NCBI GenBank assembly: GCA_963707865.1
Contig: OY970175.1
Coordinates: forward strand, 556,011 to 620,010
Source of the DNA: an uncultured bacterium
GTDB taxonomy: Bacteria; Patescibacteriota; Minisyncoccia; UBA6257; 2-01-FULL-56-20
Direction: 5' to 3'
Length of the DNA stretch: 64,000 nt
Of this stretch, positions 2,793 through 57,209 are shown one piece after another (position 1 is the stretch's first letter; each line of letters begins with the position of its first letter). The translations under genes and the position numbers were made by a program. Under the pieces are notes generated by a model. It saw nothing but the letters and a program-made list of their open reading frames with translations, was not told where the DNA came from and made no database searches.

Positions 2793-2985
2793 ATATGCAG
2801 TTCATTATATTGAGTTTTCCAAATATTTGCAAAAGCAAACACCCGTCCCAAAATGGCGAAAGGCAGGTCGCTATTTGCAACCTGCCCATCATATTCGCCG
2901 ATGGCATAGCATCCCAGATGATTCGTCTTGTCCATCATCATCTGTAAGCGCCTGCCCAAGGCCTCGGCGTGGGGCCTGTACTGAA

Positions 2986-3435: not shown

Positions 3436-3501
3436 ATTTTGGGCTACCTCCAGAGCCGCCTATGTTATAACCTCTCCTGCCGTTTATAGCAAGGGTTTTG
3501 C

Positions 3502-6029: not shown

Positions 6030-6042
6030 GTTGTTCGGGTTA

Positions 6043-7320: not shown

Positions 7321-8060
7321 CCCTGCGGAAAAAGAAGTATGGCGGCCTTTTTCGCTTCGTTAAGCATAGTTTCTTCTCCTTTGCGGACAAGCGGCGTTTC
7401 GCGCACGAGCTCCTGCACGCGATCGTTCATAAAATCCTCTAGGGTTGCGATCTGCGTTTCGTGCTCCAAGGGGAGCAGCCGCGCCGCGAGCGACTTCGGA
7501 TCATCATCCGGCAGGATTGCGAGCCGCGTGCGCGCGAGGACCGCGCCTTCGTCAAACTGCACCGCCACGCGCTGCGCCGTTGCCTCCGTCCAGAAATCGC
7601 GGTTTACGCTCCGCACAAATAAGAGCCGCGCCGCGTGGACACGCAGGCCGAACATCCCCTTGCCCCCGAAATCGGGGCGGCCGGGATCAAGCGGCCCCGG
7701 GTGCTGGTTGATCATGGCATTGCGAAATGCGGCAATCACGTTGCCGGGCGTTTTGATCATCCATCCGTACTGGCCGACGATATCAACGGCTTGCTCCTTG
7801 AGGACTTTCAAAATCGCGCTTCCGAACTCTTCTTCGTTTGCGAATTTCTTCGGCTCAATAACAAAAATGTCCTCGCGCAACATTCCCAACCGCTCCATTT
7901 TTTTAATCGCCCCGGCATCGGATCTGCTTGCGACAAGGCACGCGGGAATTATTCCCGAAAGCCGCCCGGCGTGGCACGCCGTGACGATTGCTTCCGCGGT
8001 CGTGCCGCCCCCCGAAGCAAGTATGGCCAAACGAAACGTTTTCATGCCTTTCATGCCCAA
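7317..8060 (-). CDS. purN: phosphoribosylglycinamide formyltransferase (divergent PurN-like)
   Basis: Contains LAILASGGGT (Rossmann loop as in PurN LISGNGSNL) and INQHPGPL (compare LNIHPSLLP). It overlaps purD and purF by 4 and 10 nt. Confidence 0.6.
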   Translation of the reverse strand: MGMKGMKTFRLAILASGGGTTAEAIVTACHAGRLSGIIPACLVASRSDAGAIKKMERLGMLREDIFVIEPKKFANEEEFGSAILKVLKEQAVDIVGQYGWMIKTPGNVIAAFRNAMINQHPGPLDPGRPDFGGKGMFGLRVHAARLLFVRSVNRDFWTEATAQRVAVQFDEGAVLARTRLAILPDDDPKSLAARLLPLEHETQIATLEDFMNDRVQELVRETPLVRKGEETMLNEAKKAAILLFPQG

Positions 8061-9457
8061 GTTTCCTGCAGAGCCGGTATACCGACTTCCGCCTTCCGTT
8101 CACGGATGTCCAGGGGATATTTTCCGGTGAAACAGGACGTGCACAGTTTGTCTTCGGGAACACCGATCCCTCTGAGAATCCCCTGATACGAAAGATAGTG
8201 GAGAGAGGTCGCGCCCAGAAATTCCCTTATCTCGGGAATGGTCTTTTGGAAGGCGAGGAGGCGCGCTTGCCTAGGCGTGTCAATACCGTAAAAATCGGGA
8301 AAGCGCACGGGCGGAGAGTTCACTAAGAAATGCACTTCTTTCGCGCCCGCTTCAAAGAGGATCTTTACGATCTGCGGGCTCGTGTTGCCACGCACGATGG
8401 AATCGTCTATTACGATGACGCGCTTGCCACCCACGATATCGGGGATGGCCGCAAGCTTCGTTTTCACCCCCTGCTTGCGCATCCGGTCGTCCGGATCAAT
8501 GAATGTGCGGTACACATAGCGATTTTTGACGAGTGCGAGTTCCAAAGGGATCCCCGACTCTTCTGAGTAACCGACGGCGGCGGGCAGGCCGGTTTCGGGG
8601 ATGGGGATCACCATGTCGGCATCAATTTTCCGCTCCCGTGCAAGTTCAATGCCGCACCGCTTGCGTGCGGCGTACACCGAGGTCCCCAAAAGCACGCTGC
8701 TTGAGCGCGCGAAATAGACGAATTCAAAGATGTCCAGCTTTTGATCGGGCGGCACAAGTTGAACTGACCTCATGCCTTTCTCGTCCACCACGATCATCTC
8801 ACCGGGAAGGACGTCGCGCATGAAAGTCGCTCCGACCGTAGGAAAGCTGCACGTCTCGGAAGAGAACGTAAACCCACCGTTCAACTGCCCCATAGAGAAC
8901 GGCTTGAGGCCATAGGGATCGCGCACGGCAACGAGCGTCGTCTTGTCCATAATGAGAAGCGAGAACGAGCCGGTGAAAAGTGGGTAGGCCTTCCGCACCG
9001 CGTCCTCAAGCGGAAGACCCTGCTTCGTGAAATGTTCGATGGCGAGTGTCATCATGTAGGAATCCGAGCGGCCTGTCACGTCCACCCCTTCTTTTTTCAA
9101 AAATTCCTCAAGTACCTTCACGCTTGGCAGGTTGCCGTTGTGCGCAAGCGCGATATGCCCATCCCCCGTCATGATCGGCTGTGCGTGCCGAATGCCGGTT
9201 CCCGATGAAGTGGAGTATCGGTTCTGGCCGATCGCAATGTGCCCTTTCAAACTATCAATTTTTGCTTCGTCAAAAACCTGCGTGATAAGACCGTTGCCTT
9301 TTTGGCATTCAAGGCGTGTGCCGTCGGCGGTCGCCATTCCTGCACTCTCCTGCCCGCGGTGCTGGATGGCAAGAACGCCGAAGAACGTGATCCGCGCCAC
9401 ATCCATGCCTTTTCCGTAAATGCCAAAGACGCCGCACTTCTCATTGAGTTCGTGCAT
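8051..9457 (-). CDS. purF: amidophosphoribosyltransferase
   Basis: N-terminal CGVFGIYG (Ntn nucleophile Cys) and a type-I PRTase domain (VIVIDDSIVRGNT). Confidence 0.9.
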   Translation of the reverse strand: MHELNEKCGVFGIYGKGMDVARITFFGVLAIQHRGQESAGMATADGTRLECQKGNGLITQVFDEAKIDSLKGHIAIGQNRYSTSSGTGIRHAQPIMTGDGHIALAHNGNLPSVKVLEEFLKKEGVDVTGRSDSYMMTLAIEHFTKQGLPLEDAVRKAYPLFTGSFSLLIMDKTTLVAVRDPYGLKPFSMGQLNGGFTFSSETCSFPTVGATFMRDVLPGEMIVVDEKGMRSVQLVPPDQKLDIFEFVYFARSSSVLLGTSVYAARKRCGIELARERKIDADMVIPIPETGLPAAVGYSEESGIPLELALVKNRYVYRTFIDPDDRMRKQGVKTKLAAIPDIVGGKRVIVIDDSIVRGNTSPQIVKILFEAGAKEVHFLVNSPPVRFPDFYGIDTPRQARLLAFQKTIPEIREFLGATSLHYLSYQGILRGIGVPEDKLCTSCFTGKYPLDIRERKAEVGIPALQETWA

Positions 9458-9469
9458 GTTGTTCGTACG

Positions 9470-10444
9470 TTACGGTTTATGCAGGACAAACGCCTCTAAA
9501 TTTTTTCTTATGCGATCCAACGCCGGCATCGTGAAGTCCGGCGCGAACGTCCGTCCCGTGATCTGTTCAAAAATCTTCACGTACCGGCTCGCGAGTTCCA
9601 CCACCATCTCGCGCGGCGCCTCGGGCAACACGGCGTCCTTATAAGGATCGCAATGTTCCTTGAACCAAAGCCGCAAAAACTCCTTGTCAAAATTTTCTGG
9701 CTCTTCGCCCTTTGCAATGCGCGCCTCGTAACTTGCCTGCTGCCAATAGCGGGAAGAATCAGGAGTATGTATCTCGTCAATAAGCATCACTTCTCCTTTT
9801 GGAGAAATGCCGAATTCATATTTCGTGTCCACAAGGATCAAACCGCGCTGTTTCGCCAGTTCCTCACCGCGCGCGAAAAGGCGCATCGCCAAATCTTCAA
9901 TTTGCTCCCATATTTCTTTCTTCACAAGCCCTTCGTTTATGATCTCATCCCGCGTGATCGGCCGATCGTGCGTATCTGATTTCGTAGCGGGCGTGAGAAT
10001 GGCGTGCGGCAGTTTTTGGTTCTTTTTCATCCCTTCGGGCAGGGTAAGGTCGCCAAACCGTCGTTCGCCTTTTTGATAAAGCGTCCAAATGGAGGTCCCA
10101 GTAACACCTGTAATGTAGGCGCGCGGGACAAGCTCTATTGGAATCACCTCGCACCTTTCCGTCACCATCACGTTCGAATCGGGAATCGCAATCACGTGGT
10201 TTTTCACGATATCCACGGTCTTTTCAAACCAAAACGTGCTTACTTGTGTAAGCACGTTTCCCTTGAACGGGATGAGGCACAGATTCCTGTCAAACGCGGA
10301 GTAGCGGTCGGTTGCGACAAGGATCAGCCGGTCAGGCTGCACGTACACATCACGCACTTTCCCCGAGCGGCGCTCGCCAAGGTCGCGGAAATCGGTCTTC
10401 TCAATAACATCCCCAATGTGCGCTTCTATGGTTGCCTTATCCAT
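9470..10444 (-). CDS. purC: SAICAR synthetase
   Basis: 324 aa. Contains GKVRDVY...[13 protein letters not shown], typical of the PurC family. Confidence 0.85.
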
Positions 10445-10931
10445 TGGTTTCCATTTTCTTTGCTTTTTCCATCACGCCGTCGCCAAGCTTCCGCTTGTAA
10501 TCCAAAATCTTTTTTTGGAGCGCCGCATCGCCCGCTCCCAAAATCTGCACGGCGAGGATGGCGGCGTTCTTCGCACCGTTGATCGCCACAGTCGCGACGG
10601 GAACTCCGGGCGGCATCTGGACGGTGGAATATAACGAATCAAGACCATTCAAGGTCTTGGATTGTATGGGAACTCCGATCACAGGAAGCGGCGTCATCGC
10701 GGCAGTCACTCCCGCAAGGTGCGCGGCGCCGCCGGCTCCCGCGATGATCACTTTCAGACCGCGGTCCACGGCGCTCTTTGCGTACTCATACGCCCGGTCC
10801 GGCGTGCGGTGCGCGGAGATAACCGTCATCTCATACGGCACGCCGAATTCCTTGAGCGCGTCCGCCGCCTCCTGCATCACGGGCAGATCGGAATCGGAAC
10901 CCATAATAATACCTACGAGGGGCTTAGGCAT
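10437..10931 (-). CDS. purE: N5-carboxyaminoimidazole ribonucleotide mutase (class I PurE)
   Basis: Contains [10 protein letters not shown]...SAHRTPD...[11 protein letters not shown]. The SAHRTP form indicates class I, which normally pairs with PurK. Confidence 0.85.
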
Positions 10932-11014
10932 TGTTCTCGGTCAATTATGCCCTTATTCTACCATACCCGTGGATTGCCACGCCAGCTGGCCGCTCCACCA
11001 CCGCATCGCTATAG

Positions 11015-11596
11015 CTAAATCATCTTTTTCTTCCGGGCGGAGACGAGCAGCCGTTCATAAATCGTGAGGATTTTCTTGTCGTGCAACATGTAGTCGCGTT
11101 TGTATTTTTGAAGCTCGGCCTCGGTGATCCCGTGTTCCTTCCACGGAGGCGTGCCGGAGGCGAGACCTTGGAGCATGGGCTGCAAGCGGTCTATGGAAAT
11201 CGCCACTTTTGCCTCCTTGGTGCGCCCGGCTTCAAACTCCGCCCAGAGCCGGTGGAATTTCTTTTTGAGATCCGGCGGCAAACGCCCAAAGAGCTTTTTT
11301 GCCGCCACGTCCTCACGAGCCTTTTTGGACCTGCGCGCCGCATGGTCAAAAAGAAAAGTGTCGCCCGCGTAAATTTCCACAAGATCATGCGCGAGAATCA
11401 GTTCCAGTGTCCGCAAAAGATCGAGGCTGCGCGGCAAGTCCCTAGAAAGAACCATGGCCCACAGGGCGAGGTCATAAGAATGTTCTGCGCTGCTCTCCGG
11501 ACGCTTCCCGCCGGCAATCCTCGTCCGCCGCTCAACCAACTTCAATTTCGTGGCCTCTCCGAGAAACGAAAGTAGGGTATCAATTCTATCTTTCAT
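11015..11596 (-). CDS. HD-domain phosphohydrolase (YfbR-like 5'-deoxynucleotidase family)
   Basis: Contains ESSAEHSYDLAL...LAHDLVEIYAGD (HD motif). It lies inside the pur operon, overlapping purQ by 4 nt. Confidence 0.6.
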   Translation of the reverse strand: MKDRIDTLLSFLGEATKLKLVERRTRIAGGKRPESSAEHSYDLALWAMVLSRDLPRSLDLLRTLELILAHDLVEIYAGDTFLFDHAARRSKKAREDVAAKKLFGRLPPDLKKKFHRLWAEFEAGRTKEAKVAISIDRLQPMLQGLASGTPPWKEHGITEAELQKYKRDYMLHDKKILTIYERLLVSARKKKMI

Positions 11597-12363
11597 TTGA
11601 AATACCCGACGGCATTCTTGAAAACCTGGAGGCCGGGGCCATGGATGGGAAGCTTTTTCCCTGCGCGCTCCAATTTCTCTTTAAGGTAAGGCCAGTGCGG
11701 GAGCTGCGTGAAGAACATCGCGCGCTCGGGATGCGGCATCGTTCCCAAAATTCTCCCCTCGCGGGCGGTGATGGAGGCGATGTCCCTCATTGCGCCGTTC
11801 GGATTCGCGGCGAGATCTTGATATTTGCAAACTTCCCCTTTTATGTATTTTGCGGCGATTGCATGGCTTTTCTCCAAAACGGCAAGCGTCTTCGAATCCG
11901 CAAAGTATCTCCCCTCGCCATGCGCGATCGGAACCATAAGCGTCTTTATCCCGCGCATCCACGGCGTCTCGCCCACAATTTTCAAATCAACCCAACGGTC
12001 GGTGTACCGCGCGGAGGTGTTTGGAAGCAAAGCGCCGGGCAAAAGGCCGAGGTTCGTGAGGATTTGAAAGCCGTTGCAGATCCCGATTACGAGCCGGTCG
12101 CCGCTCACGAACTTTTCCAGTTCTTCGCGAAGATGATTCTTTAGCTTGTTGGCATACGCCTTGCCGGAGCCCGTGTCGTCGCCGTACGAAAATCCTCCGG
12201 GGATCGCAAGAATCTGATAATTTTTCAATTTTCCCTTTTCCGCAACAAGGTCGTTCACGTGGACAATGTCCGCACGCGCACCCGCGAGGTCAAACGCGTA
12301 TTTGGTCTCGTCCTCGCAATTGAGGCCGTATCCAGAAAGCACAATGGCGCGCGGTTGTTTCAT
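11593..12363 (-). CDS. purQ: FGAM synthase, glutamine amidotransferase subunit
   Basis: Class-I GATase: GICNGFQ (nucleophile Cys) and HGEGR/MPHPER at the C-terminus. Confidence 0.8.
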   Translation of the reverse strand: MKQPRAIVLSGYGLNCEDETKYAFDLAGARADIVHVNDLVAEKGKLKNYQILAIPGGFSYGDDTGSGKAYANKLKNHLREELEKFVSGDRLVIGICNGFQILTNLGLLPGALLPNTSARYTDRWVDLKIVGETPWMRGIKTLMVPIAHGEGRYFADSKTLAVLEKSHAIAAKYIKGEVCKYQDLAANPNGAMRDIASITAREGRILGTMPHPERAMFFTQLPHWPYLKEKLERAGKKLPIHGPGLQVFKNAVGYFK

Positions 12364-12365
12364 GG

Positions 12366-15299
12366 TTAATATCCTTTGAACATAGATTTATATGCGCGCA
12401 GCATCAGGGCGAGCGGCACTTTCGCCGTTTTTCTGCGACAGATGGAAACGTAGCTTTTGTTCGTCACGCGGCCGATGCAGGCGAACGAATTGCCGCGCAT
12501 TTTCTTCTCAAACTCACGGCGACGGCGCGGGGCGATAGTCGCGACGATTCTCCCTTGGCTTTCGGAAAACATCGCCGACTCATCGCTTGAAACCATTCCC
12601 GGCAGCTTGGCGAACGAAACATCCAAACCGAGCTTCCCCGCCATCGCCGTCTTCGCGAGCGCGACCGCAAGCCCACCCCTCTGCACGCCGATGGCCGAAG
12701 CCACCGTGCCTGCGCGCACGCACGAATAGAACGCATCGTACAACCGCTTGTTCTTCTTCGCGTCCACGTGCGGAACCCTTCCGGTTGAAAAATATTCGCT
12801 GCCACCAAGCTCATCAAAGGTATCGCCCAAAACATACACAAGGTCACCCGCCGACTTCGCGTCAAGCGACACCGACTTCGCGGCATCGGGAACAACGCCG
12901 ATCGCGGAGATCAAAAGCGTGGGTGGGATCGAAATTTTCAACGGTTTCCCGTTCGCATCGTACCCTTTGAAATCGTTGAACATACTGTCCTTTCCCGAAA
13001 TGAACGGCGTCCCGTATGCGACTGCGTAGTCGTAACATGCCTGCACGGCGCGCTTCAGTTGGAACAGCCGCTCCGGCTCATTGGAACTGCACCAGCAAAA
13101 ATTATCAAGTAGCGCAAGATAATCGGGGTCGGCACCCGCGGCCACGGCGGATCGGATCGCGGTATCAATCGCGCACGCCGCCATCGCGTAGGGATCGCGC
13201 TCCGAGTATGAGGGAACTATGCCTGACGAGAGCACCACCCCTTTAGGAGAATCAAGAACCGGGCGGAAAACCGACGCGTCCGCGTTCACCCTTCCCCTTC
13301 CGACGAGCGGCTTCAACACGGAACTTGCCTGCACCTCGTGATCGTATTGCATGGCAATAAACTCGGAACTTGCAATGTTCGGATGCGCGAGTATGTGGAA
13401 GACCGCTGCGCCGAGGTCGCGCTCCTCGCGAAGCGGCGAGTCGATGTCAGGTGGCAGCGGCTCGCGGGTCGTGAGCCGCTTCGTGGGCAGTCCTTCGTGG
13501 AGAAATTCCAAATCAACATCCATCGCGGTCTTCCCTTTGAACTTCACAACGCACTTCCCGGAATCCGTAAAGCACCCGATTACGGTTGCCTCAACACCGC
13601 GCGCGCGCAAAAGCTTGGAAAGTTCTTGCCAGTTGGATTTCGGAACGGCGAGCGTCATGCGCTCCTGCGATTCCGAAATCCAGATCTTCCACGGCTCAAG
13701 GCCAGGATATTTAAGCGGCACCTTATCCAAATCAACAAGGCATCCGTTGCACTCCTTCGCCATCTCGGCCACCGAGCACGACAGCCCTCCGGCGCCGTTG
13801 TCCGTAATGCTGTGATAGAGTTTACGGTCGCGCGCTTCTTTTATCAGGGCGTCGCTCATCTTCTTTTGCGTGATCGGATCGCCGATCTGCACCGCCGTCG
13901 CAGGACTTCCCGAATCCATCGCTTCCGAAGAAAATGTCGCACCATGGATGCCGTCCTGCCCCACGCGGCCGCCCGTCATCACGATGTAATCCCCCGCCTG
14001 CGCCCGCTTTTTATACAAAGACCTGCCCCCGTGCACGCGCGGGATGAGCCCCACCGTCCCCACAAAAACAAGTGGCTTCCCTCGGTAACGCTTGTCAAAA
14101 AGGACGAATCCCTGTGGTGTGGGGATGCCGGAGCAATTTCCACCGACGTTCACGCCCCTCACCACACCGTCCATGATCCGCCGCGCGGAAAGCATTTTCT
14201 GCTTTTTAGCCGCATCCCGGTAGAGCACGCTCGTATCGCGCGGGTCGGCGAAGCAAAAGCCGTACAGGTTCGCGACCGGCTTCGCGCCGAGCCCGAATCC
14301 CATCGTGTCGCGGTTCACGCCGACAATGCCCGTGACCGATCCGCCAAAAGGGTCAAGCGCGGAAGGACTGTTGTGCGTTTCCACCTTATGCGTGATTAAA
14401 TATTTATCATCAAACGCTATCGCGCCGGAATTGTCAGTGAAAACCGAAACACAAAAATCTTTTTTGCCTTTCTTCTTGCGGATGTCATTCGTCGCTTGTT
14501 TGATGTACGAACGAAAGAGGCCTCCTTTCACCTCGTCAATTGGATCCGCGAAGATTGTGTGTTTGCAATGCTCCGACCACGTCTGCGCGAGTGATTCAAC
14601 CTCCACGTCAGTCGGCTTGCGCTTTTTCTTCGTGAAGTAATCGCGAATCGCCTTCATACTCGGAAGATCAAGCGCGAGCGGCCCGTTCCGCGTCCCGTCT
14701 TTGTTCTGAATCCCTTCCTTCCCAATGCGGGAGAGCTCTTCGTCGCTCACTTCCAAATTTACGGCCTCCACGGACGGTTTCGTGCGAAGATTCACCTTTG
14801 GAACCGCCGCCCCCATTCCCTTATCGCGCTTGAATTCGCTGGCGCTCTTGATCCGCGCACGCTGGATGAGCGGGTTATAAAGACCTTCGGCAATTGCCGC
14901 TACATCCTCTTTGGGCAATCTTCCCGAGAGGAAGAGAACCTGCGAGGAATATACACCCTGGCCGTTTTTACATTTCCTTCCCAGGAAATCTTCTATCGTT
15001 TCGCGGGCGGTCGTGCCCACGTTGTCGGTCACGCCCGGGAGAAATCCGACCTCAACCGCCCACGCAAACTTCTTTGGCGCCTCGGCAGAATTAATTACCG
15101 CTCGTTCAACGAGCGGGTTTTCAAAAAGTGCGGCGACTCCCTTGCGCTCTTTTGTCGTGAGCGGCATGTCCACCACGTATGAATCCGCAAGCGCGACGCC
15201 GGCAATCTTCCCTTTGAAGCCGCGGTCTTCAAGCTGCCGCCGATACACCTCGGCCCGCGTGTCAGGTACTTTATATCTGACGTCTATGCGCACAGCCAT
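12366..15299 (-). CDS. purL: FGAM synthase II with N-terminal PurS-like domain (purS-purL fusion, 977 aa)
   Basis: Residues 1-70 look like PurS (...LFENPLVE, compare PurS LLANPVIE). The rest is the PurL/AIRS-like double domain with Gly-rich ATP loops (VGLIPRVHGG, VLGDTFDELGGSEYF). Confidence 0.8.
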   Translation of the reverse strand: MAVRIDVRYKVPDTRAEVYRRQLEDRGFKGKIAGVALADSYVVDMPLTTKERKGVAALFENPLVERAVINSAEAPKKFAWAVEVGFLPGVTDNVGTTARETIEDFLGRKCKNGQGVYSSQVLFLSGRLPKEDVAAIAEGLYNPLIQRARIKSASEFKRDKGMGAAVPKVNLRTKPSVEAVNLEVSDEELSRIGKEGIQNKDGTRNGPLALDLPSMKAIRDYFTKKKRKPTDVEVESLAQTWSEHCKHTIFADPIDEVKGGLFRSYIKQATNDIRKKKGKKDFCVSVFTDNSGAIAFDDKYLITHKVETHNSPSALDPFGGSVTGIVGVNRDTMGFGLGAKPVANLYGFCFADPRDTSVLYRDAAKKQKMLSARRIMDGVVRGVNVGGNCSGIPTPQGFVLFDKRYRGKPLVFVGTVGLIPRVHGGRSLYKKRAQAGDYIVMTGGRVGQDGIHGATFSSEAMDSGSPATAVQIGDPITQKKMSDALIKEARDRKLYHSITDNGAGGLSCSVAEMAKECNGCLVDLDKVPLKYPGLEPWKIWISESQERMTLAVPKSNWQELSKLLRARGVEATVIGCFTDSGKCVVKFKGKTAMDVDLEFLHEGLPTKRLTTREPLPPDIDSPLREERDLGAAVFHILAHPNIASSEFIAMQYDHEVQASSVLKPLVGRGRVNADASVFRPVLDSPKGVVLSSGIVPSYSERDPYAMAACAIDTAIRSAVAAGADPDYLALLDNFCWCSSNEPERLFQLKRAVQACYDYAVAYGTPFISGKDSMFNDFKGYDANGKPLKISIPPTLLISAIGVVPDAAKSVSLDAKSAGDLVYVLGDTFDELGGSEYFSTGRVPHVDAKKNKRLYDAFYSCVRAGTVASAIGVQRGGLAVALAKTAMAGKLGLDVSFAKLPGMVSSDESAMFSESQGRIVATIAPRRRREFEKKMRGNSFACIGRVTNKSYVSICRRKTAKVPLALMLRAYKSMFKGY

Positions 15300-20238: not shown

Positions 20239-20313
20239 CCCCGAAAGCCCCCTCTTGCGTTTTTTAACGGCCTGTGCTATCATACCATTACCTACAAAGT
20301 AGAAATGTGATAT

Positions 20314-20336
20314 GCCCCGAAAGGGGCGTTTTTGTT
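20314..20336 (+). terminator. intrinsic terminator after the CBS gene
   Basis: GCCCCGAAAGGGGC hairpin followed by GTTTTTGTT. Confidence 0.6.
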
Positions 20337-20343
20337 GGAAAAC

Positions 20344-20805
20344 ATGCATATTACCTTACATAGATTCCTCAAAAGGATCTACATTCTCGTAACTACGGCG
20401 GCAGCCTTTGTGATGACCGTTGCTCCGGCCATTATTAGGGCTGATATCCTGCCGCAAGCGGACATTTCGGGGCAAAAACTCCAACCCAAAGCGACGCCCA
20501 CGCTTTACCTACGCGTGACGGCATATTCAAGTTCGCCCGACGAGACCGACGATACCCCCTTTATCACCGCAGCGGGGACGAGGGTTAAGAACGGTATCGT
20601 CGCAACAAACGCGTTCCCCTTTGGAACAAAGCTACAAATCCCCGCACTTTTTGGCAATCGGATTTTCACCGTAGAAGATCGTATGAATCGCCGCATGAAA
20701 AATGTCGTGGACGTCTGGATGCCGACGAAATCCGCCGCAATCACATTCGGCGTGAGCTACGCGAACGTCATTATTGTAAAGGACAAGGCACTCTCTCAAA
20801 AGTAA
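20344..20805 (+). CDS. 3D-domain cell-wall-associated protein (MltA/YocH-like)
   Basis: N-terminal signal/TM segment, then VTAYSSSPDETDDTPFITAAGTRV...VDVWM, the 3D-domain signature. Confidence 0.65.
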   Translation: MHITLHRFLKRIYILVTTAAAFVMTVAPAIIRADILPQADISGQKLQPKATPTLYLRVTAYSSSPDETDDTPFITAAGTRVKNGIVATNAFPFGTKLQIPALFGNRIFTVEDRMNRRMKNVVDVWMPTKSAAITFGVSYANVIIVKDKALSQK

Positions 20806-26795: not shown

Positions 26796-26833
26796 TACAA
26801 ACGTTGTAAGTGTTCTTAGTAGGTTTGGCTTGT

Positions 26834-26899
26834 CCAGCCGTAGTTTTGCCCGTGATGCCTTGCGTGAATGGCACGCATGATAAGTAAAACTACGGCTAG
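26834..26899 (+). repeat. copy 1 of the CCAGCCGTAGTT hairpin family (in the rbp leader)
   Basis: CCAGCCGTAGTTTT ... AAAACTACGGCTAG arms enclose a second hairpin (TGCGTG aatgg CACGCA). Confidence 0.5.
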
Positions 26900-26999
26900 A
26901 TGAGAAAGCAGAGGAGAAGTAGGTCGCCTTACACAAAAATAGCAACACAGAGAACTCAGCACCAAATTGTTTTCGCGAGAAGGCGCTGGGTTTTATTTA

Positions 27000-27322: not shown

Positions 27323-27358
27323 AACCAAAAATCCCGCGACAACGCGGGATTTTTGGTT
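27323..27358 (+). terminator. strong intrinsic terminator after the rbp gene
   Basis: AACCAAAAATCCCGCG acaa CGCGGGATTTTTGGTT is a perfect 16-bp stem with an embedded U-run. Confidence 0.75.
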
Positions 27359-27603
27359 TGTCCTCGTCTTATGCTTTTCGGAGCCCGCTTCGGACTCGAG
27401 AAATCAACTCGCTCATAACGAAAATCCGCCACCCTGGTCGCTGCTCCCGGGTACCCGGTGGATTTTCTATTCGCTCGCGATTTCTACCTCGTCCTCTCGC
27501 TAGGCTCCTCAAAACACAAGACGAGGACAGGCACAAGACTTCGCAACCCGAGTACTTCTGAATAGTTTAGGATGGGACCATCTTACTCATCTCGATCGGG
27601 ATG

Positions 27604-41589: not shown

Positions 41590-43089
41590 TTAGTGGGCAT
41601 GCGAAAAAGTCATGGAAAAGGAAGTAGTGAGGCCGTTCGTTTGCACCTGTCCCAATGGAAGGTTGACGGAACTGAAATCGGAATCGCTCTTGAGCGCCGT
41701 TTCAAACGCAAGGATCGCATCCTGCGTCCGCGCGGTCCCCGAGAGCGCGATAGGAGTGCCCATGGACTGAAACGCAACGTGGTTCACGGTCACTTGATTG
41801 CTCCCTGCGATATCCAAGATTTTTTTCAAAATGACGCCCTTAGGGGCCGCGGCGTTCAGGGCGGCGGCGACGAGCGCCACGGAACCGTTGAAACCGCTGG
41901 CAGTTGCCTGCAGTGCGGTGGTTTCCGCAACCTGCGCGCTGCTCAAATTAAATGAGGAACGTGATTCAATGGTCGTCTTTGTTTCCGAGAGGAATATATC
42001 TGCTCCTGCGAAGGTAACAACGAGAAGCAATAGGGCGGCGGGAATGGCGACGCGCCAAAATCGCATAAAGCCCAGAAGTTCCTCCCCGCGGAACTTGTCT
42101 TGCAACTCCTTTCCCAAGAGGTTGATCTCGCGGTCCTTCACTTTGAACCCCGACTCGCGCAAACTGCATCCGAGCGCGGTAAACCATGCCGACGAAACCG
42201 GCTGGCCCATCGTGAGCATGCAACGTACCGCAGGAACCGAGGCGCTCTCCGTGATGACACGCTCGGTCTCCGCTTCTAAAACCACGGCGGAAAAGATGAT
42301 CGCATCCAAAGATCCGGCCCAGTGCTGGTAATAAAAATTTATGACGCGCCGCACGCTTGCCCCGAGCGTTTCTTCGAATTTTGGAACGGAGATCTCCCCT
42401 TTGTCATTCATAAGATCCTGCCATGGAACCGCGTATTCAAAATATGGCACGCCCTTGCGAATGATCGCGAAATCCAGTCCGGCATCATCAATGTTCACAA
42501 AGAGGTAGGACTTTGCCATGTCAATGCCAGCCCCTTTTTCACGGAGCAGCCGCGCGAGCGCAAACGCCCGTGATTCCACCGCCGTTATGATGAATCCCGC
42601 CTCAAAAAACGCTTCCGCCATCCCATCCACCACGCCGCGTTCAATAAACGCAGAGAGGATCTGAAGCTGCAACGTGTTCTCGTCACGTCCCACAAACTCC
42701 CAGTCCGAATATGCCTCGTCTGCCTCAAGCGGCGAAGTCATCTTGAGGTTCAACTCCACCGCCCTTTCCAAATCCTTTCCCTTAACCGCGGGGAGTGCGA
42801 ATACCTGCGTATAGGTTTCCGCGGAATTGAAACATACCGCCACGCTCATTTTCCCCTTTCTTCCTTTCTTTTGCGCTTGTTCCTTAAGCGCCATGAGCGC
42901 CGCGACAAATCCCTTGCGGTCGGCAATCCTTCCTCCCTTCACTACGCCGGGCTCAAGGCGCACCGCATGCATCTGCCAAGCTTTCCCGTCAAAACGCACG
43001 AGCCGCACCACTTGATCGCTTACGGAAAGTCCCGCGGCCGCCGAATGGACGCGAAGAAGTAAAAGTAATTTTTGGAACCAGCGTTGCAT
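41590..43089 (-). CDS. type IV pilus assembly protein PilM fused to PilN (and possibly PilO)
   Basis: N-terminal actin-like PilM region, then INLLGKE (the PilN INLLP motif), a TM segment and a periplasmic tail. The start is at the internal ATG (MQRWFQ) because the track start lies inside the upstream palindrome. Confidence 0.6.
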   Translation of the reverse strand: MQRWFQKLLLLLRVHSAAAGLSVSDQVVRLVRFDGKAWQMHAVRLEPGVVKGGRIADRKGFVAALMALKEQAQKKGRKGKMSVAVCFNSAETYTQVFALPAVKGKDLERAVELNLKMTSPLEADEAYSDWEFVGRDENTLQLQILSAFIERGVVDGMAEAFFEAGFIITAVESRAFALARLLREKGAGIDMAKSYLFVNIDDAGLDFAIIRKGVPYFEYAVPWQDLMNDKGEISVPKFEETLGASVRRVINFYYQHWAGSLDAIIFSAVVLEAETERVITESASVPAVRCMLTMGQPVSSAWFTALGCSLRESGFKVKDREINLLGKELQDKFRGEELLGFMRFWRVAIPAALLLLVVTFAGADIFLSETKTTIESRSSFNLSSAQVAETTALQATASGFNGSVALVAAALNAAAPKGVILKKILDIAGSNQVTVNHVAFQSMGTPIALSGTARTQDAILAFETALKSDSDFSSVNLPLGQVQTNGLTTSFSMTFSHAH

Positions 43090-43100
43090 AGTTTGGTAGT

Positions 43101-43266
43101 TAGACCCCATCCCCAAAATAGACCACACGACTCTTATGGCCATTTTCGGCTGCGAAACGTGAGTCCCTCCTCGCAATACCACAAGGTATTCCTTCGTCGG
43201 GATTCACGTTTCTCGCTCGAAAATGGTTCATAATCCTCATGTGCCTATTTTTGGGATGGGGTCTAG
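43101..43266. repeat. about 165-bp near-perfect palindromic element, copy A (between pilMN and pilC)
   Basis: Outer arms TAGACCCCATCCCCAAAATAG / CTATTTTTGGGATGGGGTCTAG, inner arms GAAACGTGAGTCCC / GGGATTCACGTTTC. The core of about 85 bp recurs at 44517-44600. Confidence 0.6.
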
Positions 43267-44468
43267 AAAGAACTCGTGAGCTGGTAGATCGGCACAATGA
43301 TGGAAAGCGCGATGGTCACCACGATCAATCCCATACCCAGGAGAAGAATGGGCTCCAAGAGTGACACGAGCGTCTGGATGCTGCTATCAATGTTCGCACC
43401 GTAGAAATCGGCGAGGGTGGCGAGCACCTCGTCCAAGTGACCCGCCTTTTCCGAGATGGCGATCAGATTGCTCAACGTTTTCGGGAAGACCGCCTCGCGC
43501 TTGAACGATTCCCCGATCGTAAGGCCTTTCGCCAAACCTTCATTCGCAACCCGCATGAGCGCATATTGATAATCGCGGTGATTCACGGTTTCCGCCGCGA
43601 CCGTGATGGTTTCAATAATAGGCAATCCCGCCTTGATGAGCGAACTGATTGTAGAGGCCATGCGCTGCACCCCAAGGTCGTTGTAAACTTTCCGAATGAC
43701 AGGAAGATTCGCCAAGATGCGATGAAGGATCCTTTTTCCTGTCTCCGTCTTTTGTGCCCCCACCACGCACACGATGATCGCTGTAATTAAAATCGCGTAG
43801 ATCGGCACGATATTTGCGCCGACGAAAAGCCCGACGCCGAAGACGATGCGCGAGAAAAGCGGCGCACTGATGCCTCCTCCTGAAAATGCCGCGGCGAGTT
43901 TCGGCAACGCAAAGGTGACAAGAAACGTAAGGATAGCGGCTGCCATGCACAAAACAACCACCGGATAGATGAGCGCCGCGCGGATTTTGGATTTTAACTC
44001 CGCATCGCGCTCAAGCGAAACGGAAAGGTCTTCAAAGGTCTTCTCCAAGTTGCCGGAAATCTCTGCGGCTTTGACCAAATTCACGAATGTCGGCGAAAAA
44101 GCCTCCGGATGCCTCGCAAACGATTCGTAGAACGGCTGGCCGCGGCTCAAACTGTCGTACACTTCAAGGAGAAAGTTCTTGATGGAAGGCTTGTCAAAAT
44201 CCGCGATGAGGATGTTCACTGCGGAAAGAAGGTCGGTGCCCACGCGCAGCATAAGCGCAAGGTATTTGGTCAAAAACACCTCGTCGGACGTAGTGATGCC
44301 TCCCCAAAACCTCGGCGCGCCGAACCTGCCACGCTTCAATGCTTTGACCGAGATCGGGCGGAGCTCTTTTCCTGAAAGATAGTGCAGAACGTCGTCAAGC
44401 GTCCCCGCATCAAAATCGGCTTCTTGCGTCTCTCCGGAGCGGTCCACGGCGACATAATGATAGAGCAT
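43263..44468 (-). CDS. pilC: type IV pilus / T2SS platform protein (GspF/PilC family)
   Basis: 401 aa, two GspF repeats, three TM segments. Confidence 0.85.
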   Translation of the reverse strand: MLYHYVAVDRSGETQEADFDAGTLDDVLHYLSGKELRPISVKALKRGRFGAPRFWGGITTSDEVFLTKYLALMLRVGTDLLSAVNILIADFDKPSIKNFLLEVYDSLSRGQPFYESFARHPEAFSPTFVNLVKAAEISGNLEKTFEDLSVSLERDAELKSKIRAALIYPVVVLCMAAAILTFLVTFALPKLAAAFSGGGISAPLFSRIVFGVGLFVGANIVPIYAILITAIIVCVVGAQKTETGKRILHRILANLPVIRKVYNDLGVQRMASTISSLIKAGLPIIETITVAAETVNHRDYQYALMRVANEGLAKGLTIGESFKREAVFPKTLSNLIAISEKAGHLDEVLATLADFYGANIDSSIQTLVSLLEPILLLGMGLIVVTIALSIIVPIYQLTSSF

Positions 44469-44491
44469 GATCTTATTGTACCAGAACCTAC

Positions 44492-44634
44492 ATCAAAAGT
44501 AGGATTCGTCTATTCCGTGTCAGTTTCGAGCGAGAAAGGTGAATCCCGACGAAGCTGTAGCCATGCCTACTGCGAGGAGGAATTCGCCTTTCGTAGCCGA
44601 AACTGGCCGGAAGAGGCGATTGATCTACTTTTGA
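44492..44634. repeat. palindromic element, copy B (between pilC and pilB), inverted relative to copy A
   Basis: The reverse complement of 44517-44600 aligns nearly base-for-base with 43150-43225 (...TTCGTCGGGATTCACnTTTCTCGCTCGAAA). It has its own outer arms, ATCAAAAGTAG / CTACTTTTGAT. Confidence 0.6.
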
Positions 44635-44643
44635 TATAGGTTC

Positions 44644-46359
44644 TCATTCGCGTATCACGCGGAGCACTTCTTCCAATGTCGTGAGCGCAAGCTCGGCTTT
44701 CTGAATGCCGTCTTCAAACATTGTCTTCGCGCCTTCCTTTCTCGCGACGGCGCGCAGGTTCTCAAGATTGAAATTTTCCGCGGTGATGACCCCTTTCACG
44801 GCATCGGTCACGCGGAGTAATTCAAAAATGCCAAGGCGGCCGCGATACCCCGTCATCCCGCAGGAGCTGCATCCTTTCCCACGATAAAGGGTCTTTGGTG
44901 TAAACATGGCATCTTCCGGCACGCCAAGCTCGTGTAATTGGATCCGAACGGTCCGGGCGACATCGGGACCGGCGTCATACGAATAGATACAGGCTGGACA
45001 AACGCGCCGGACGAGGCGCTGGGCAATAATGAGGTTCAGCACCGATCCGGCAAGAAACGGCGGCACTTTTAGATCAAACAGGCGCGGGACTGCGGTGGGA
45101 GCATCGTTCGTGTGGAGCGAGGAAAGAAAAAGGTGGCCGGTCAAGGCCGCTTGGACAGCGATGTCGGCGGTTTCCGCATCGCGGATTTCACCGACCATGA
45201 TGATGTTCGGATCCTGCCGGAGGAGTGCGCGGAGTCCCGATGCGAACGTGACCCCTGCCTGCGTGTTGACCTGCGTCTGGTTCACGTAGCGCATGTTATA
45301 TTCAATTGGGTCCTCAATGGTCACCACATTCACCTGCGGCTTGTTCAGAATGTTCATAAGCGCATAGAGTGTCGTCGTTTTCCCGGAGCCGGTCGGACCA
45401 CAAGAAAGCACCATGCCATAGGCCTTCTTGAGTTCTTCTTTCGCTGCAGCGGCATCTCCTGCCGCCATGCCTATTTCTTCAAGCGAAAGAGGTTTTTGTG
45501 ACGACGTGAGCACCCGCATCTCCGCCTTTTCCCCATAAAATGTGGGCATCACGGAAACGCGCACGTCAGTCAACTCGTTCCCCACCTGCTCCCTGAACCG
45601 CCCGTCTTGCGGCTCGTAGTGTTCATCAATCTTGAGACCCGCCAAAAGCTTGATACGCGCGACGATCGCGGGATGGATGGTCTTCGATACGTTCATCACT
45701 TCGTAGAGAATGCCGTCAATGCGATACCGTATGAACATTGATTCTTCCAATACTTCTATATGGATGTCCGAGGCTCGCGAAGCAATCGCGTAGGAGAGGA
45801 TGTTGTCCACAATAGCGACAATAGGAAGATCTCCCGCTGCTTCTTCGGCACTCTTCGCCCGCGCCGCAAGCGACGCTTTGACATTCTCTCCGATGAGCTT
45901 TTTGAAATCCTGACCGAGCTCGTAGCCGAAAACCGAAAAACCGCGATTGAGATCTTCTTCGGTAGCAAGAAATGGTTTGACTTTCGCTTTCAGGCGCTGT
46001 GCGAGGAATTCTATCGTCTCAAGGTTGGATGGATCCCTCATGGCAACGTCGTATGTCCCGTCGGCTTCCTTGGCGAAGAGGACGACCTGGCGCTGGCGCG
46101 CGATATCTTCCGGAATGAGTTTTAGCACGTCGTTCTCCACTTTCTGCACACTGAAATCAACGCGCGGGACGCCAAGCGCTTTCGCCACAAGGTTGTTCAA
46201 ATAATCCGCGGTGGTGAACTGTTCCGAAATAAGCACGTCAAGGATATTCTGGCTCTTCCTCTCGGCTTCGGCAAAAAGCTCGTCAAATTTTTCCGCCGAG
46301 ATAAGCCCTTCGTCAACAATCAGTTTCTTAAGCTGGAGCGGCGGAAGTGGTAATCGCAT
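44644..46359 (-). CDS. pilB: type IV pilus assembly ATPase (GspE/PilB family)
   Basis: Walker A GPTGSGKTTT, Asp/His boxes, and a C-terminal tetracysteine (CPAC...CSSC). Confidence 0.9.
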   Translation of the reverse strand: MRLPLPPLQLKKLIVDEGLISAEKFDELFAEAERKSQNILDVLISEQFTTADYLNNLVAKALGVPRVDFSVQKVENDVLKLIPEDIARQRQVVLFAKEADGTYDVAMRDPSNLETIEFLAQRLKAKVKPFLATEEDLNRGFSVFGYELGQDFKKLIGENVKASLAARAKSAEEAAGDLPIVAIVDNILSYAIASRASDIHIEVLEESMFIRYRIDGILYEVMNVSKTIHPAIVARIKLLAGLKIDEHYEPQDGRFREQVGNELTDVRVSVMPTFYGEKAEMRVLTSSQKPLSLEEIGMAAGDAAAAKEELKKAYGMVLSCGPTGSGKTTTLYALMNILNKPQVNVVTIEDPIEYNMRYVNQTQVNTQAGVTFASGLRALLRQDPNIIMVGEIRDAETADIAVQAALTGHLFLSSLHTNDAPTAVPRLFDLKVPPFLAGSVLNLIIAQRLVRRVCPACIYSYDAGPDVARTVRIQLHELGVPEDAMFTPKTLYRGKGCSSCGMTGYRGRLGIFELLRVTDAVKGVITAENFNLENLRAVARKEGAKTMFEDGIQKAELALTTLEEVLRVIRE

Positions 46360-46376
46360 AGTTATATAATACCAAA

Positions 46377-46408
46377 CCAGCCGTAGTTTCAGAAGAAACT
46401 ACGGCTGG
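46377..46408. repeat. copy 2 of the CCAGCCGTAGTT hairpin family (between the pilin gene and pilB)
   Basis: CCAGCCGTAGTTTC agaa GAAACTACGGCTGG is a perfect 14-bp stem. Confidence 0.5.
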
Positions 46409-46433
46409 ATGGATTTTGTTCAACCAAAGACCC

Positions 46434-55172: not shown

Positions 55173-55308
55173 AGGAATACAATCATCAAATTTCAGCGCA
55201 CAAATGAGGATTCGAACATAAGCTATTAAAGAGAGGGACTATCCAAGGGGATCGGACCTTGCGCAGCACCCCGACCCCCGGTCTGGGAAACCCACGGTTT
55301 CCCACCCG

Positions 55309-55339
55309 CCAGCCATAGTTCACTGCGAACTACGGCTGG
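55309..55339. repeat. copy 3 of the CCAGCCGTAGTT hairpin family
   Basis: CCAGCCATAGTTC actgc GAACTACGGCTGG. It is preceded by a second hairpin, GGGAAACC cac GGTTTCCC (55285-55303). Confidence 0.5.
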
Positions 55340-55382
55340 CTCCTTCCTATACGGGGTGCTGCTCCGGTCCGCTCCCAACAAA

Positions 55383-55548
55383 ACAGACAAGCAGGCAGAG
55401 TATATTTTGAGAGGACCGCGCAGCCCCGCTCGGCTCGGTCCGAAATGCCATTGCGCGCATTTCGGCGAGCGGGGCGAGCGCCAAGAAAAAATTGCCGCTG
55501 GAGCAATTTTATTCTGTCTCTCAAAATATACTCTGCCTGCTTGTCTGT
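55383..55548. repeat. MITE-like element: perfect 31-bp terminal inverted repeats flanking 104 bp
   Basis: ACAGACAAGCAGGCAGAGTATATTTTGAGAG occurs at 55383-55413, and its exact reverse complement at 55518-55548. The interior carries nested inverted repeats (CCGAAATGC/GCATTTCGG, CGCAGCCCCGCTCG/CGAGCGGGGCGAGCG). Confidence 0.55.
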
Positions 55549-55721
55549 GCCCCCTCTCGGTCTTGGACCTTTTCGGGAGCAACCTAGCAAGCGTTTCCGA
55601 GGGTCTTCTTCTCCTCTTGTTTGAAGCCTCACGGTCGCTAGGCTCGGGAAATACTATAAGGCATTTTCAGAGATTTTGGTAGGGCTGACGCCTCACGGTC
55701 GCCTCTGCATTGGTGCTTCGT

Positions 55722-55766
55722 AAATGTTACAAATGTTACACTTTTTTGGCACTTTGGCGTGTAACA
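55722..55766 (-). terminator. terminator of the SLATT/SMODS operon
   Basis: On the minus strand, TGTTACAC...GTGTAACA (8-bp stem) is followed by TTTGTAACATTT. Confidence 0.4.
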
Positions 55767-56267
55767 TTATCTGATCTTTCCGGCCTTATCGCGATCCGGC
55801 TCATGCATGCCGCCTTGAACTGTTTTACGTGCTTCGGCAAAGCTTTTATCATCCGTCGGCGGTGTTGATTTCAATAATTCGTTGTAGCGCTGGTGTAAGT
55901 TTTCTATGGCGATAACCAACGCCTCATCAGTCAGCCTTGTCGACTGCGATTCGCGGAGGAAACGGGCGTCGTGCTTTAATGTCGTGAAATTCTTCGCTGC
56001 TGCGAGATGATCTTGGTATGTTTTGTTGGGATTTAGAACGGCTGTGACCGCAGACACCGTGGCGGAGAGGATAGTGAACGGCAAAAGCCATTCGCCAAGC
56101 CAATGGACAGCCACAAGCGTGCTCGATAAAGCAGCGCAGATGGCTGGAACAACTTCAAACCAAGTCGCCTTCCTCTTTGCCCAAACGGCGAGGCGATGAT
56201 GGGCCTCCGCCGTATACGTGCAGTTCTGCTGGATAATTCCACACTCTTCTATATATTTTTCTCTCAT
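55767..56267 (-). CDS. small two-TM protein resembling SLATT-type effectors
   Basis: Amphipathic N-helix (YTAEAHHRLAVWAKRK), then two TM helices (VVPAICAALSSTLVAVHWL, LLPFTILSATVSAVTAVL) and a helical tail. It is the last gene of the nucleotidyltransferase operon. Confidence 0.45.
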   Translation of the reverse strand: MREKYIEECGIIQQNCTYTAEAHHRLAVWAKRKATWFEVVPAICAALSSTLVAVHWLGEWLLPFTILSATVSAVTAVLNPNKTYQDHLAAAKNFTTLKHDARFLRESQSTRLTDEALVIAIENLHQRYNELLKSTPPTDDKSFAEARKTVQGGMHEPDRDKAGKIR

Positions 56268-56284
56268 GGTTTTATTTTATAATT

Positions 56285-57205
56285 TTACAGCGTTGCAGGG
56301 AAATGATCCGGAAACAATTCCCTCCACATTTCAATTTTTGTGCCCTGTTGCGGAGCGGCGTTGATACCGCGGATGTAGTTGGCGATCGTGACAAACGTAC
56401 CGCTGAGTTGCCGCGCTTTATCGGGATCGAACACAATGGGCGTCGACTTACTGCCGGGTATTCCAATCGGAGCCGAGAGCTGAGCGGACGCGTCCGCGAA
56501 AAACTCCCGGAGAAGGTCGTGATAAAACACGGACACGTTGTTCGACCTCTTAACCACCACCGAAAGCGGGATGTTCTTCGTCGCAAGTATCTCCAGTGGG
56601 AAAGAATCCATATCCGCGAAATATCTCTGCTTGAGGGCTTTGAGCATTTTGATCGCAGGAATCAAGTATCCCCCGCTCGCCTCGTTCTGTTTTGAAATAT
56701 ACTCGGCTTCGTAATCGTAATCCGCCATCTGCCACGTACCATTCTTAACAACCCAGTAACCACGACCAATGGAACCGAGCTCTCTTCCGGCGGAATCTCT
56801 CCCGATCATATCAATATACGCCGGAACAAGCTGCGCCTGAATTTCATCGGCGTATGTGACGGTAACGGTGGGCGCATCCTGAAAAGGGTTCATGTCGCCA
56901 TACCGGGCGCTTTCATTAACGGTAGAATGCAGCTGATCCAGTGCCGCTTGCGGGGTCACGCCGCCGGATGCCACCCATGCGGTAAACTCTCCTGCGATCA
57001 CGAGAATATCAATATCAAATTTTTTTCCGCTGCCCGGATGAATTCTTGTCTTGCGGGCAACCGAACCGATGAGCTTCGAATCCTTGAAGGACGGGTGGTG
57101 GTTCTGAAGGTATGTCCGCATGGCGGTATGCCGCGTAGAAACGGATTCCGCGAGCGTAGGATCAAGCTCGAGATTACTTTTCAGTTTTAGAAAATATTCG
57201 TGCAT
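56285..57205 (-). CDS. SMODS / cGAS-DncV-like nucleotidyltransferase (CD-NTase-like)
   Basis: N-terminal helix, then LIGSVARKTRIHPGSGKKFDIDILV (GS-x12-hDhDh) and a downstream YADEIQAQLVPAY (third acidic residue). Confidence 0.55.
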   Translation of the reverse strand: MHEYFLKLKSNLELDPTLAESVSTRHTAMRTYLQNHHPSFKDSKLIGSVARKTRIHPGSGKKFDIDILVIAGEFTAWVASGGVTPQAALDQLHSTVNESARYGDMNPFQDAPTVTVTYADEIQAQLVPAYIDMIGRDSAGRELGSIGRGYWVVKNGTWQMADYDYEAEYISKQNEASGGYLIPAIKMLKALKQRYFADMDSFPLEILATKNIPLSVVVKRSNNVSVFYHDLLREFFADASAQLSAPIGIPGSKSTPIVFDPDKARQLSGTFVTIANYIRGINAAPQQGTKIEMWRELFPDHFPATL

Positions 57206-57209
57206 GAGG

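Follow-up and report, generated by a model that had tools for sequence, protein, structure and literature searches.

In a 64,000-nt stretch of contig OY970175.1 from an uncultured bacterium of the Minisyncoccia (hereafter the window), the pilus gene pilC is bracketed by two long hairpin-forming elements, D and E, which lie in the spacers towards pilMN and pilB, respectively. D and E are probably diverged copies, in opposite orientation, of a palindromic, non-coding foldback element of about 160 nt that resembles a miniature inverted-repeat transposable element (MITE) and has spread in a small clade of the Minisyncoccia. The pattern of filled and empty orthologous sites shows D and E to be independent insertions and not an inversion cassette; they reached the two ends of pilC at different times, E being the older, and we infer that the bracketing of pilC is incidental and that the gene is not part of a switch.

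The preliminary description of this DNA had pointed to a long near-perfect palindrome in each spacer next to pilC, and folding agrees with this. With short flanks, the RNA minimum free energy is −97.2 kcal/mol for D (z −12.5) and −79.1 kcal/mol for E (z −8.5), against a shuffle mean of about −46 kcal/mol, and none of 200 shuffles was as good for either (RNA energies of −96 and −88 kcal/mol were also obtained for the full-length hairpins D and E); as single-stranded DNA they fold with −52.6 kcal/mol (z −12.0) and −44.1 kcal/mol (z −8.5). Perfect 20-bp RNA helices are predicted in both, and the outer arms, 20-21 nt long, are 95% complementary. The exact limits are 43101-43265 for D and 44483-44644 for E; those first given for E (44492-44634) are slightly too narrow, and the preliminary description is otherwise correct. 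Both elements touch the upstream stop codon, and on the start side D and E end 11 nt and 14 nt from the ATG. The first three pairs of the D stem are formed by the TAG stop codon of pilC (43263-43265) and D ends short of the pilMN ATG, whereas E overlaps the A of the pilB TGA codon at 44644 and has its other end at the TG of TGGTACAAT, before the pilC ATG.

D and E can be aligned in inverted orientation only, over 34 nt at 94% identity, over about 125 nt at 77% and also end to end, with a longest perfect identity of 16 nt. The reverse complementarity originally noticed is thus confirmed, and a similarity of this length is neither short nor low in complexity. The best-conserved arm of D, which is invariant in four of four D/E-type copies, carries the TCGCTC/GAGCGA motif that is common to a wider family of hairpins. 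Since the copies differ by insertions and deletions, no reading frame is conserved and the elements are non-coding. The more stable (sense) strand of D is the minus strand, which is the transcribed one, while that of E is the plus strand, E being inverted relative to D, and the pil transcript therefore bears E antisense. Searching the whole window against Rfam 15 at the gathering threshold returned one tRNA only, and permissive scans gave only sub-threshold matches to generic hairpins and leaders.

Table 1. Coordinates of the hairpin elements and of the pil genes beside them in the window.
Feature	Position	Strand	Basis or remark
Element B, 171-nt hairpin, B/C type, between convergent genes	27359..27529	-	inverted-repeat search, folding
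Element C, 167-nt hairpin, B/C type, between HIT gene and rpsU	38535..38701	+	inverted-repeat search, folding
pilM-pilN fusion (pilMN; PilM_2+PilN; 499 aa from ATG at 43089)	41590..43089	-	Pfam; 499-aa orthologues
Element D, 165-nt full-length hairpin, pilC stop to pilMN start	43101..43265	-	inverted-repeat search, folding
Best-conserved arm of D, CTTCGTCGGGATTCACGTTTCTCGCTCGAAAATG (plus strand)	43192..43225	.	94% complementary to 44521-44554
pilC (T2SSF, 401 aa), bracketed gene	43263..44468	-	PF00482, 7e-46
Predicted extended -10 box of pilC, TGGTACAAT	44475..44483	-	abuts E; sequence pattern only
Element E, 162-nt full-length hairpin, pilB stop to pilC promoter	44483..44644	+	inverted-repeat search, folding
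Matching conserved arm of E, CAGTTTCGAGCGAGAAAGGTGAATCCCGACGAAG (plus strand)	44521..44554	.	94% complementary to 43192-43225
pilB (T2SSE ATPase, 571 aa)	44644..46359	-	PF00437, 4e-118; TGA stop overlaps E end by 1 nt
Element F, 166-nt hairpin, perfect 31-bp outer arms	55383..55548	.	inverted-repeat search, folding

Four related genomes were found via PilC, all from Minisyncoccia, members of the candidate phyla radiation (CPR), with a PilC identity to the window of 94% for contig L001, 93% for L002 and 73-77% for the more distant relatives. In the related contigs (L001-L004 and L011-L026) pilB, pilC and the next gene always point the same way and the two spacers measure 19-27 and 10-11 nt, the pilB-pilC junction of L002 carrying E; in all, more than 30 related contigs show a compact pilB-pilC-pilMN arrangement. 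This junction is filled in the window and in L002, where the orthologue of E occupies 9825-9986, and E is absent from it in L001, L003, L004, L022 and L024, the sequence being TAG-AACC-TGGTACAAT in L001 and TAG-TGGTACAAT in L004. D was found in the window only; the pilC-pilMN junction of L001 and L002 consists of TAG, 11 nt and ATG, and the same 11-nt spacer precedes the pilMN ATG after D in the window. All pil junctions are compact in 10 contigs of the L001 species and in contigs from species with 73-75% identity. A metagenome scan with the core pattern yielded one true extra locus, seen twice: downstream of comF, the L001 species has a D-type copy that matches D at 91% (contigs L007, L010 and L028; present in 10 of 10 contigs of that species); three other matches were due to chance and lay in coding sequence. 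The comF site is empty in the L002 genome, where GGCATAA is followed directly by CATGGTACCAT, and filled in the L001 species, which reads GGCATAG, then the element (AACCC...GGGTTC), then TCACGTGGTAAAAT. Filled and empty states are therefore both met at three junctions, pilB-pilC, pilC-pilMN and comF, and D-type copies occupy different loci in two sister lineages, pil in the window and comF in the L001 species. Within the SPRUCE species no polymorphism was seen at pil (10 contigs), comF (10 contigs) or HIT (two pil contigs compared). At third codon positions the window is closer to L001 (84.2% identical) than to L002 (81.4%), so that E most likely existed already in the common ancestor of all three and was later deleted in L001, where AACC was left.

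Three more hairpins, B, C and F, were located in the window (Table 1). A k-mer hairpin scan placed C, D and E far above the shuffled background, with B and F at its upper edge (one account of the scan has three of the five elements at that edge). Its other marginal matches, at 10674, 31670, 4067, 30379, 19191 and 48829, were branched folds of coding regions and not single long hairpins, so B, C, D, E and F are the sole such elements in the 64 kb; two further inverted-repeat candidates (20313-20474 and 58483-58604) were branched or coding. The core common to B and C has GAGCGA in each arm, for which tandem G.A pairs are predicted in the fold; a k-turn reading of these GAGCGA loops was discarded, as no defining feature of that motif was found. 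The B/C and D/E types align in one relative orientation, with the CGAGCGA motif equidistant from the end in both, and in the sense orientation (B minus, C plus, D minus, E plus) they fold 8-18 kcal/mol better than their complement, irrespective of the direction of the flanking genes. B adjoins a canonical terminator hairpin with a T-run at 27323-27358. F lies with a short hairpin in about 530 nt (55230-55766) that have no convincing open reading frame (ORF) or Rfam match and may represent an unannotated RNA or decayed genes. Scans of viral contigs with the D/E and B/C core patterns gave zero matches, and blastn against plasmids and phages gave no match to the elements. No 8-12-mers were over-represented other than the hairpin stems themselves, and a reading of the repeats as DNA uptake sequences was rejected on that account.

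Comparison of the wider family revealed that cores and outer stems can be uncoupled. The core of F is 90% identical to that of the element after the HIT gene in the L001 species, although the outer stems, perfect over 31 and 28 bp, are unrelated, the 28-bp stem of the HIT site beginning at the HIT stop codon. In the HIT-rpsU spacer (38472-38708 in the window) a C-type element is present in the window and in L002 (15642-15813), whereas the L001 species has an F-type core (7568-7727). After a T2SSE gene of the L002 genome (L027 5381-5567), an element has a core 96% identical to that of C over 129 nt by blastn (93.9% over the core columns) and an outer stem of about 20-27 bp unrelated to that of C, whereas at the orthologous site of the sister species (L028 5381-5564) the outer stem is conserved and the core is merely 58% identical. 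About 70 nt to the side of this hairpin, the synteny of L027 and L028 breaks off. Between paralogues the homology runs from TTTTG...GAACC to GGTTC...CAAAA, and in the orthologous copies of C the changes in one arm, an indel among them, are mirrored in the other. The differing combinations of core and stem from locus to locus imply that locus-specific stems exchange their cores or receive them by insertion at the apex, perhaps because an insertion elsewhere would not keep both hairpins and hence would not survive. Template switching at quasi-palindromes may in addition perfect and extend the outer stems.

The termini of the D/E-type copies, AGAACCCATMTCCAAAATAG, are homologous at three loci (D, E and the comF copy) and so belong to the element. 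An inverted duplication of the target as source of the AGAACC/GGTTCT ends was rejected, the same ends being found at three independent loci; the outer stems of the B/C and F types may still have such an origin. D/E-type copies read TA-G...C-TA, with the flanks TA/TA for D, TA/TC for the comF copy and GA/TG for E, and a TAG...CTA framing is also found at the F-type copy after HIT in L001 and at the copy after the T2SSE gene in L027 and L028. The junctions are consistent with a TA target, the duplication of which would extend the stem while the 5' G of the element restores a TAG stop codon.

At the pil locus, where the neighbours are pilB, pilMN, pth, lepB and hisS (Pfam), the predicted -10 box of pilC lies 6 nt 5' of the ATG and is kept in relatives with or without E, which suggests a promoter of the leaderless type. 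We also observed that TGnTAnnnT, an extended -10-like pattern, precedes the ATG by 6-7 nt, with no Shine-Dalgarno sequence, in many genes of the window (e.g. 44475-44483, 46365-46375 and 38486-38494), and this pattern would suggest widespread leaderless mRNAs with one promoter per gene in the host genome. Promoters so close to the ATG would leave as dispensable only the bases that separate a stop codon from the -10 box of the following gene, precisely where the elements sit. With five elements and about 60 spacers, simple arithmetic gives two neighbouring filled spacers in about 30% of random placements, so the occurrence of such a pair beside pilC is unsurprising in itself.

The alignments show that the structure of the elements is constrained. 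Among the four copies of the D/E type, both sides have changed with pairing kept at 14 of 61 pairs, and 97.5% of the cells are paired, compared with 35-49% after the 3' partners are slid by 1-3 columns. For the five copies of the B/C type the figures are 25 of 62 pairs and 90.6%, compared with 35-50%. Internal loops and bulges are retained across copies rather than lost. The resident copies also evolve slowly: E differs between the window and L002 at 6 of 161 positions (96.3% identical), whereas third codon positions of pilB and pilC are 78.7-83.8% identical (16-21% differ), and a count this low under a rate of 19% has P = 8e-9; for the orthologues of C there are 16 differences in 169 positions (P = 5e-4). 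One compensatory pair accounts for two of the six changes in E, and a further two, which give C.A in the sense strand, read G.U in the transcribed strand. Against third codon positions, the low divergence of E and C means that resident copies are conserved well beyond neutrality, and the cause is either host selection on the intact hairpin or repeated conversion from conserved active copies.

The preliminary description had listed insertion of a MITE- or REP-like element among its readings, and this is the one that gained support, from the filled and empty orthologous sites, from the 91% identical copy that a sister species has at the unrelated comF locus and from the related hairpins B, C and F in the window. 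As is characteristic of MITEs, the copies are short (162-165 nt), non-coding, bounded by terminal inverted repeats and found at unrelated loci with filled and empty sites. D and E both occupy the handful of bases that can be spared after a stop codon and before the promoter or start codon that follows. The element, 5'-G...C-3' and flanked by TA, would rebuild TAG when inserted at the TA of a stop codon, with the stem extended over the stop. Mobilisation would require the whole molecule to be folded as a hairpin, probably from one particular single strand, and a dependence of this kind would leave compensatory changes along the stem and a better-folding sense strand in every copy. After insertion, a copy would form a very stable hairpin, either within a transcript or at its end, and a resident hairpin would now be preserved by the host, or else by active copies that convert it again and again. 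Tight junctions probably tolerate no form other than an intact closed hairpin, which would explain its preservation, and it may act as a transcript-end or insulator structure.

Several observations weigh against this explanation. Among the 63 ORFs of the window no transposase with matching ends was detected by Pfam, and neither these ORFs nor the gene tables of about 300 kb of related loci contain a RAYT/Y1 gene. The only insertion sequence of the window, an IS481-like element at 32977-33966 with 20-nt perfect terminal repeats and an rve transposase (32995-33930), was rejected as a parent, for its terminal repeat GCACACACATATGGCGGACT is unlike the AGAACC... ends. A clear direct target duplication is not seen for E, B, C and F (direct target repeats are absent from B, C and F), insertion directly after TAG without duplication would fit the junctions about equally well, and the D/E-type insertion sites number three only. 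The choice of the sense strand is based on four to nine sequences, the copy number of five refers to 64 kb of a genome of 898,885 bp, and the strong conservation of E is more in keeping with a function for the host than with pure selfishness. The IS481-like element itself lies, with a DUF3800 gene (32113-32982), in a 3.1-kb segment (31642-34736) that is absent from L001 and L002.

It is quite possible, if less than probable, that the hairpins have been domesticated and are now retained for their use in pil transcripts, an explanation that concerns retention and is compatible with a mobile origin. An RNA-level role as terminator or processing site, the remaining reading of the preliminary description, is plausible. 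The roles proposed, each as a possibility, are termination or insulation before the leaderless pilC promoter, protection of 3' ends, uncoupling by RNase III, and bridging of the pilC stop and the pilMN start. This would account for the slow evolution of the E and C orthologues, which is about that of first and second codon positions, and for E differences that preserve pairing, by the compensatory pair and by the two C.A mismatches that read G.U in the transcribed strand. E moreover sits between a stop codon and an extended -10 box, where other host genes bear terminator hairpins, D leaves before the pilMN ATG a spacer equal to that of relatives without D, and the Correia elements of Neisseria show RNA-level effects of this sort (PMC2649163). 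Terminator function finds little support in the sequences that follow the full hairpins of D and E (GGTACAAT and ACTACCAAAC), which contain no U-tract or T-run; the full stems are not called as terminators, a terminator scan giving a chance-level internal site only, although canonical T-run terminators do occur in this genome (27323-27358). Close relatives manage without either element, and with D transcribed in sense and E in antisense no sequence-specific RNA motif can be common to both.

We consider it unlikely that the palindromes are simply self-perfecting, with template switching during replication copying one arm onto the other and producing structure without a role or selection. Quasipalindrome template switching is an established mutational mechanism, and it would explain perfect outer stems (31 of 31 and 28 of 28 pairs) that are unrelated between copies with 90% identical cores, the matching changes and matching indel in both arms of the C orthologues, and outer stems that are kept at orthologous sites while the cores differ. 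The copying of arms, however, does not slow substitution, and E and C have changed far less than synonymous sites; all copies retain conserved internal loops and bulges uncorrected, and there are shared G.U positions in one strand only.

Inversion or cassette exchange of pilC, another reading of the preliminary description, would make the inverted copies a recombination device that inverts or replaces pilC for phase or antigenic variation, and this is very unlikely. The inverted copies do enclose exactly one gene with its promoter, and pilus genes are often the target of phase or antigenic switches in other bacteria. However, both copies are present in the window genome only, D being absent from both close relatives and E from the closest, and the inverted arrangement occurs in no related contig, the genes keeping one orientation everywhere. 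An identity of 77% with at most 16 nt perfect is a poor substrate for homologous recombination, no invertase, integrase or other recombinase is encoded nearby (Pfam, window ORFs), and PilC, whose relatives' homologues are 93-94% identical, is no variable surface protein but a conserved platform in the inner membrane. Since the pilC promoter would lie inside the invertible segment, a flip would not turn pilC off. The view that the hairpins are ancestral cis-regulatory structures of the pil locus, lost in relatives and never mobile, would suit the strong conservation of E between two species and the AACC left at its site in L001, but it is hardly tenable and, given the comF-site copy, largely refuted, as the comF site of another species holds a near-identical D-type copy and is empty in a third, the junctions of the relatives with 73-77% PilC identity are compact and bear no trace of an element, and homologous cores occur at unrelated loci (HIT-rpsU, T2SSE 3' ends and convergent gene ends).

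Extending the MITE-like explanation to the whole family, we may ask whether the elements belong to an undescribed CPR superfamily in which an exchangeable core (TTTTG..GAACC...GGTTC..CAAAA, with GAGCGA loops and a sense strand) sits at the apex of perfect, locus-specific stems that start at the stop codon, moves as a single strand and is held under purifying selection as a gene-end or insulator hairpin. We hold this to be doubtful in its entirety; if true, the 3'-end structures of the host would be supplied and renewed by a mobile element, in a genome of leaderless, individually promoted genes.

Of the known systems, the Correia elements (CREE/NEMIS) of Neisseria, of about 105-157 bp, insert at TA, are co-transcribed and have RNase III and promoter effects (PMC2649163). 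The present elements resemble them in size (about 160-170 bp), in being non-coding, in having terminal inverted repeats round a directional core and in the likely TA target, and also in being intergenic and often co-transcribed, in forming RNA hairpins and in presence or absence between strains, and a dedicated transposase is known in neither case. They differ in that the hairpin spans the whole length, compared with 26-bp ends in CREE, and in that the centre is the most conserved part and the termini vary; they also live in a CPR bacterium whose genome measures about 0.9 Mb, an IHF site and promoter creation being traits of CREE. Judged from the quoted motifs there is no sequence similarity: the CREE ends are AACAAAAA or AAATTTAAA and the core ends CCGGTACGG and TCAGGACAA (PMC2649163), whereas the termini AGAACCCATMTCCAAAATAG lack the end motifs as quoted there, and membership was rejected, although the elements may work in a similar way and have CREE and REPINs as their nearest analogues in function. 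REPINs are whole-element hairpins with compensatory changes; RAYTs mobilise them in single-stranded form, and about 6 bp from one end stay behind on excision (PMC3116915). The likeness extends to a whole-element hairpin in single-stranded DNA or mRNA, compensatory stem changes, an extragenic location, residual end bases after excision (AACC at the L001 E site) and a strand polarity that suggests a single-stranded form. REPINs, on the other hand, are REP doublets moved by transposases of the IS200-IS605 Y1 type, measure about 70-110 nt and have highly conserved ends of about 16 nt with a variable spacer, whereas here the ends vary and the middle is conserved.

The enterobacterial ERIC/IRU, BIME/REP, RUP and RPE families are likewise imperfect palindromes of about 100-170 bp, intergenic, transcribed and in either orientation, with possible effects on mRNA fate; their sequences are unrelated to the present elements, and they are not known to have locus-specific outer stems with exchangeable cores, or a systematic overlap of stem and stop codon. 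Invertible segments such as fim, hin, Piv-type systems and shufflons share the inverted repeats round a pilus-related gene, but the repeats here are long, diverged whole elements and not short crossover sites, there is one orientation, and the second repeat is missing in relatives. The attC sites of integrons are similar as imperfect palindromes 3' of a gene, with structure conserved over sequence and strand polarity from unpaired bases; an attC identity was rejected, as the ends AGAACC...GGTTCT do not fit RYYYAAC/GTTRRRY, no integrase is found among the window ORFs, the orientations are opposite and the flanking genes, each with a promoter of its own, belong to the housekeeping core. The comparison supports a novel MITE/REPIN/Correia-like family in the Minisyncoccia that is outside CREE and REPIN by sequence and that may have been co-opted as a transcript-end hairpin, and we found no account of such repeats in Patescibacteria in the literature.

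Five copies in 64 kb, their placement between stop codon and promoter and a conservation above that of synonymous sites indicate that reduced genomes tolerate, and perhaps use, mobile hairpins, although Patescibacteria, with about 0.9 Mb of DNA, are commonly held to have streamlined genomes. Exchangeable cores within locus-specific outer stems are unusual and could reveal a mechanism of single-strand or apex-targeted insertion. In metagenome-assembled CPR genomes the elements are sharp markers of strain and species history and of rearrangement boundaries, as well as a likely cause of assembly breaks.

Other hairpins were noted in the window and its relatives. A second, short family with the stem CCAGCCGTAGTT/AACTACGGCTGG and variable loops occurs in the window at 26833-26900, 46361-46424 and 55309-55340 and in L002 at 8059-8094, one copy having a loop 40 nt longer, and at the pilin-pilB site the L001 species has another perfect hairpin (L001 160-206). 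Hairpins at L004 3206-3257 and 4029-4104 and at L024 2332-2447 have a conserved centre, GGAAAGAG-TACTNNGAAGGG-CTCTTTCC, with variable perfect outer stems of 20-32 bp, and two of them lie directly 3' of a tRNA gene. L002 carries a 780-nt insertion (1299-2078) relative to window position ~52395, which terminates in a hairpin element at 1942-2078 (arms TTCCCTTTCTGCTTTTGGGAG and CTACCAAAAGCAGAAAGGGAA). The window also encodes what looks like a full set of genes for de novo purine synthesis (1293-15299; IMPDH, PurM-like, PurB, PurD, PurN, PurF, PurC, PurQ and PurL), unusual at a CPR genome size of about 0.9 Mb. At 55767-61524 it has a CBASS-like defence cluster of two SMODS nucleotidyltransferases and a SLATT effector (55767-58457), after which come a LexA-like repressor (58671-59285) and an N6/N4 DNA methylase (60247-61524).

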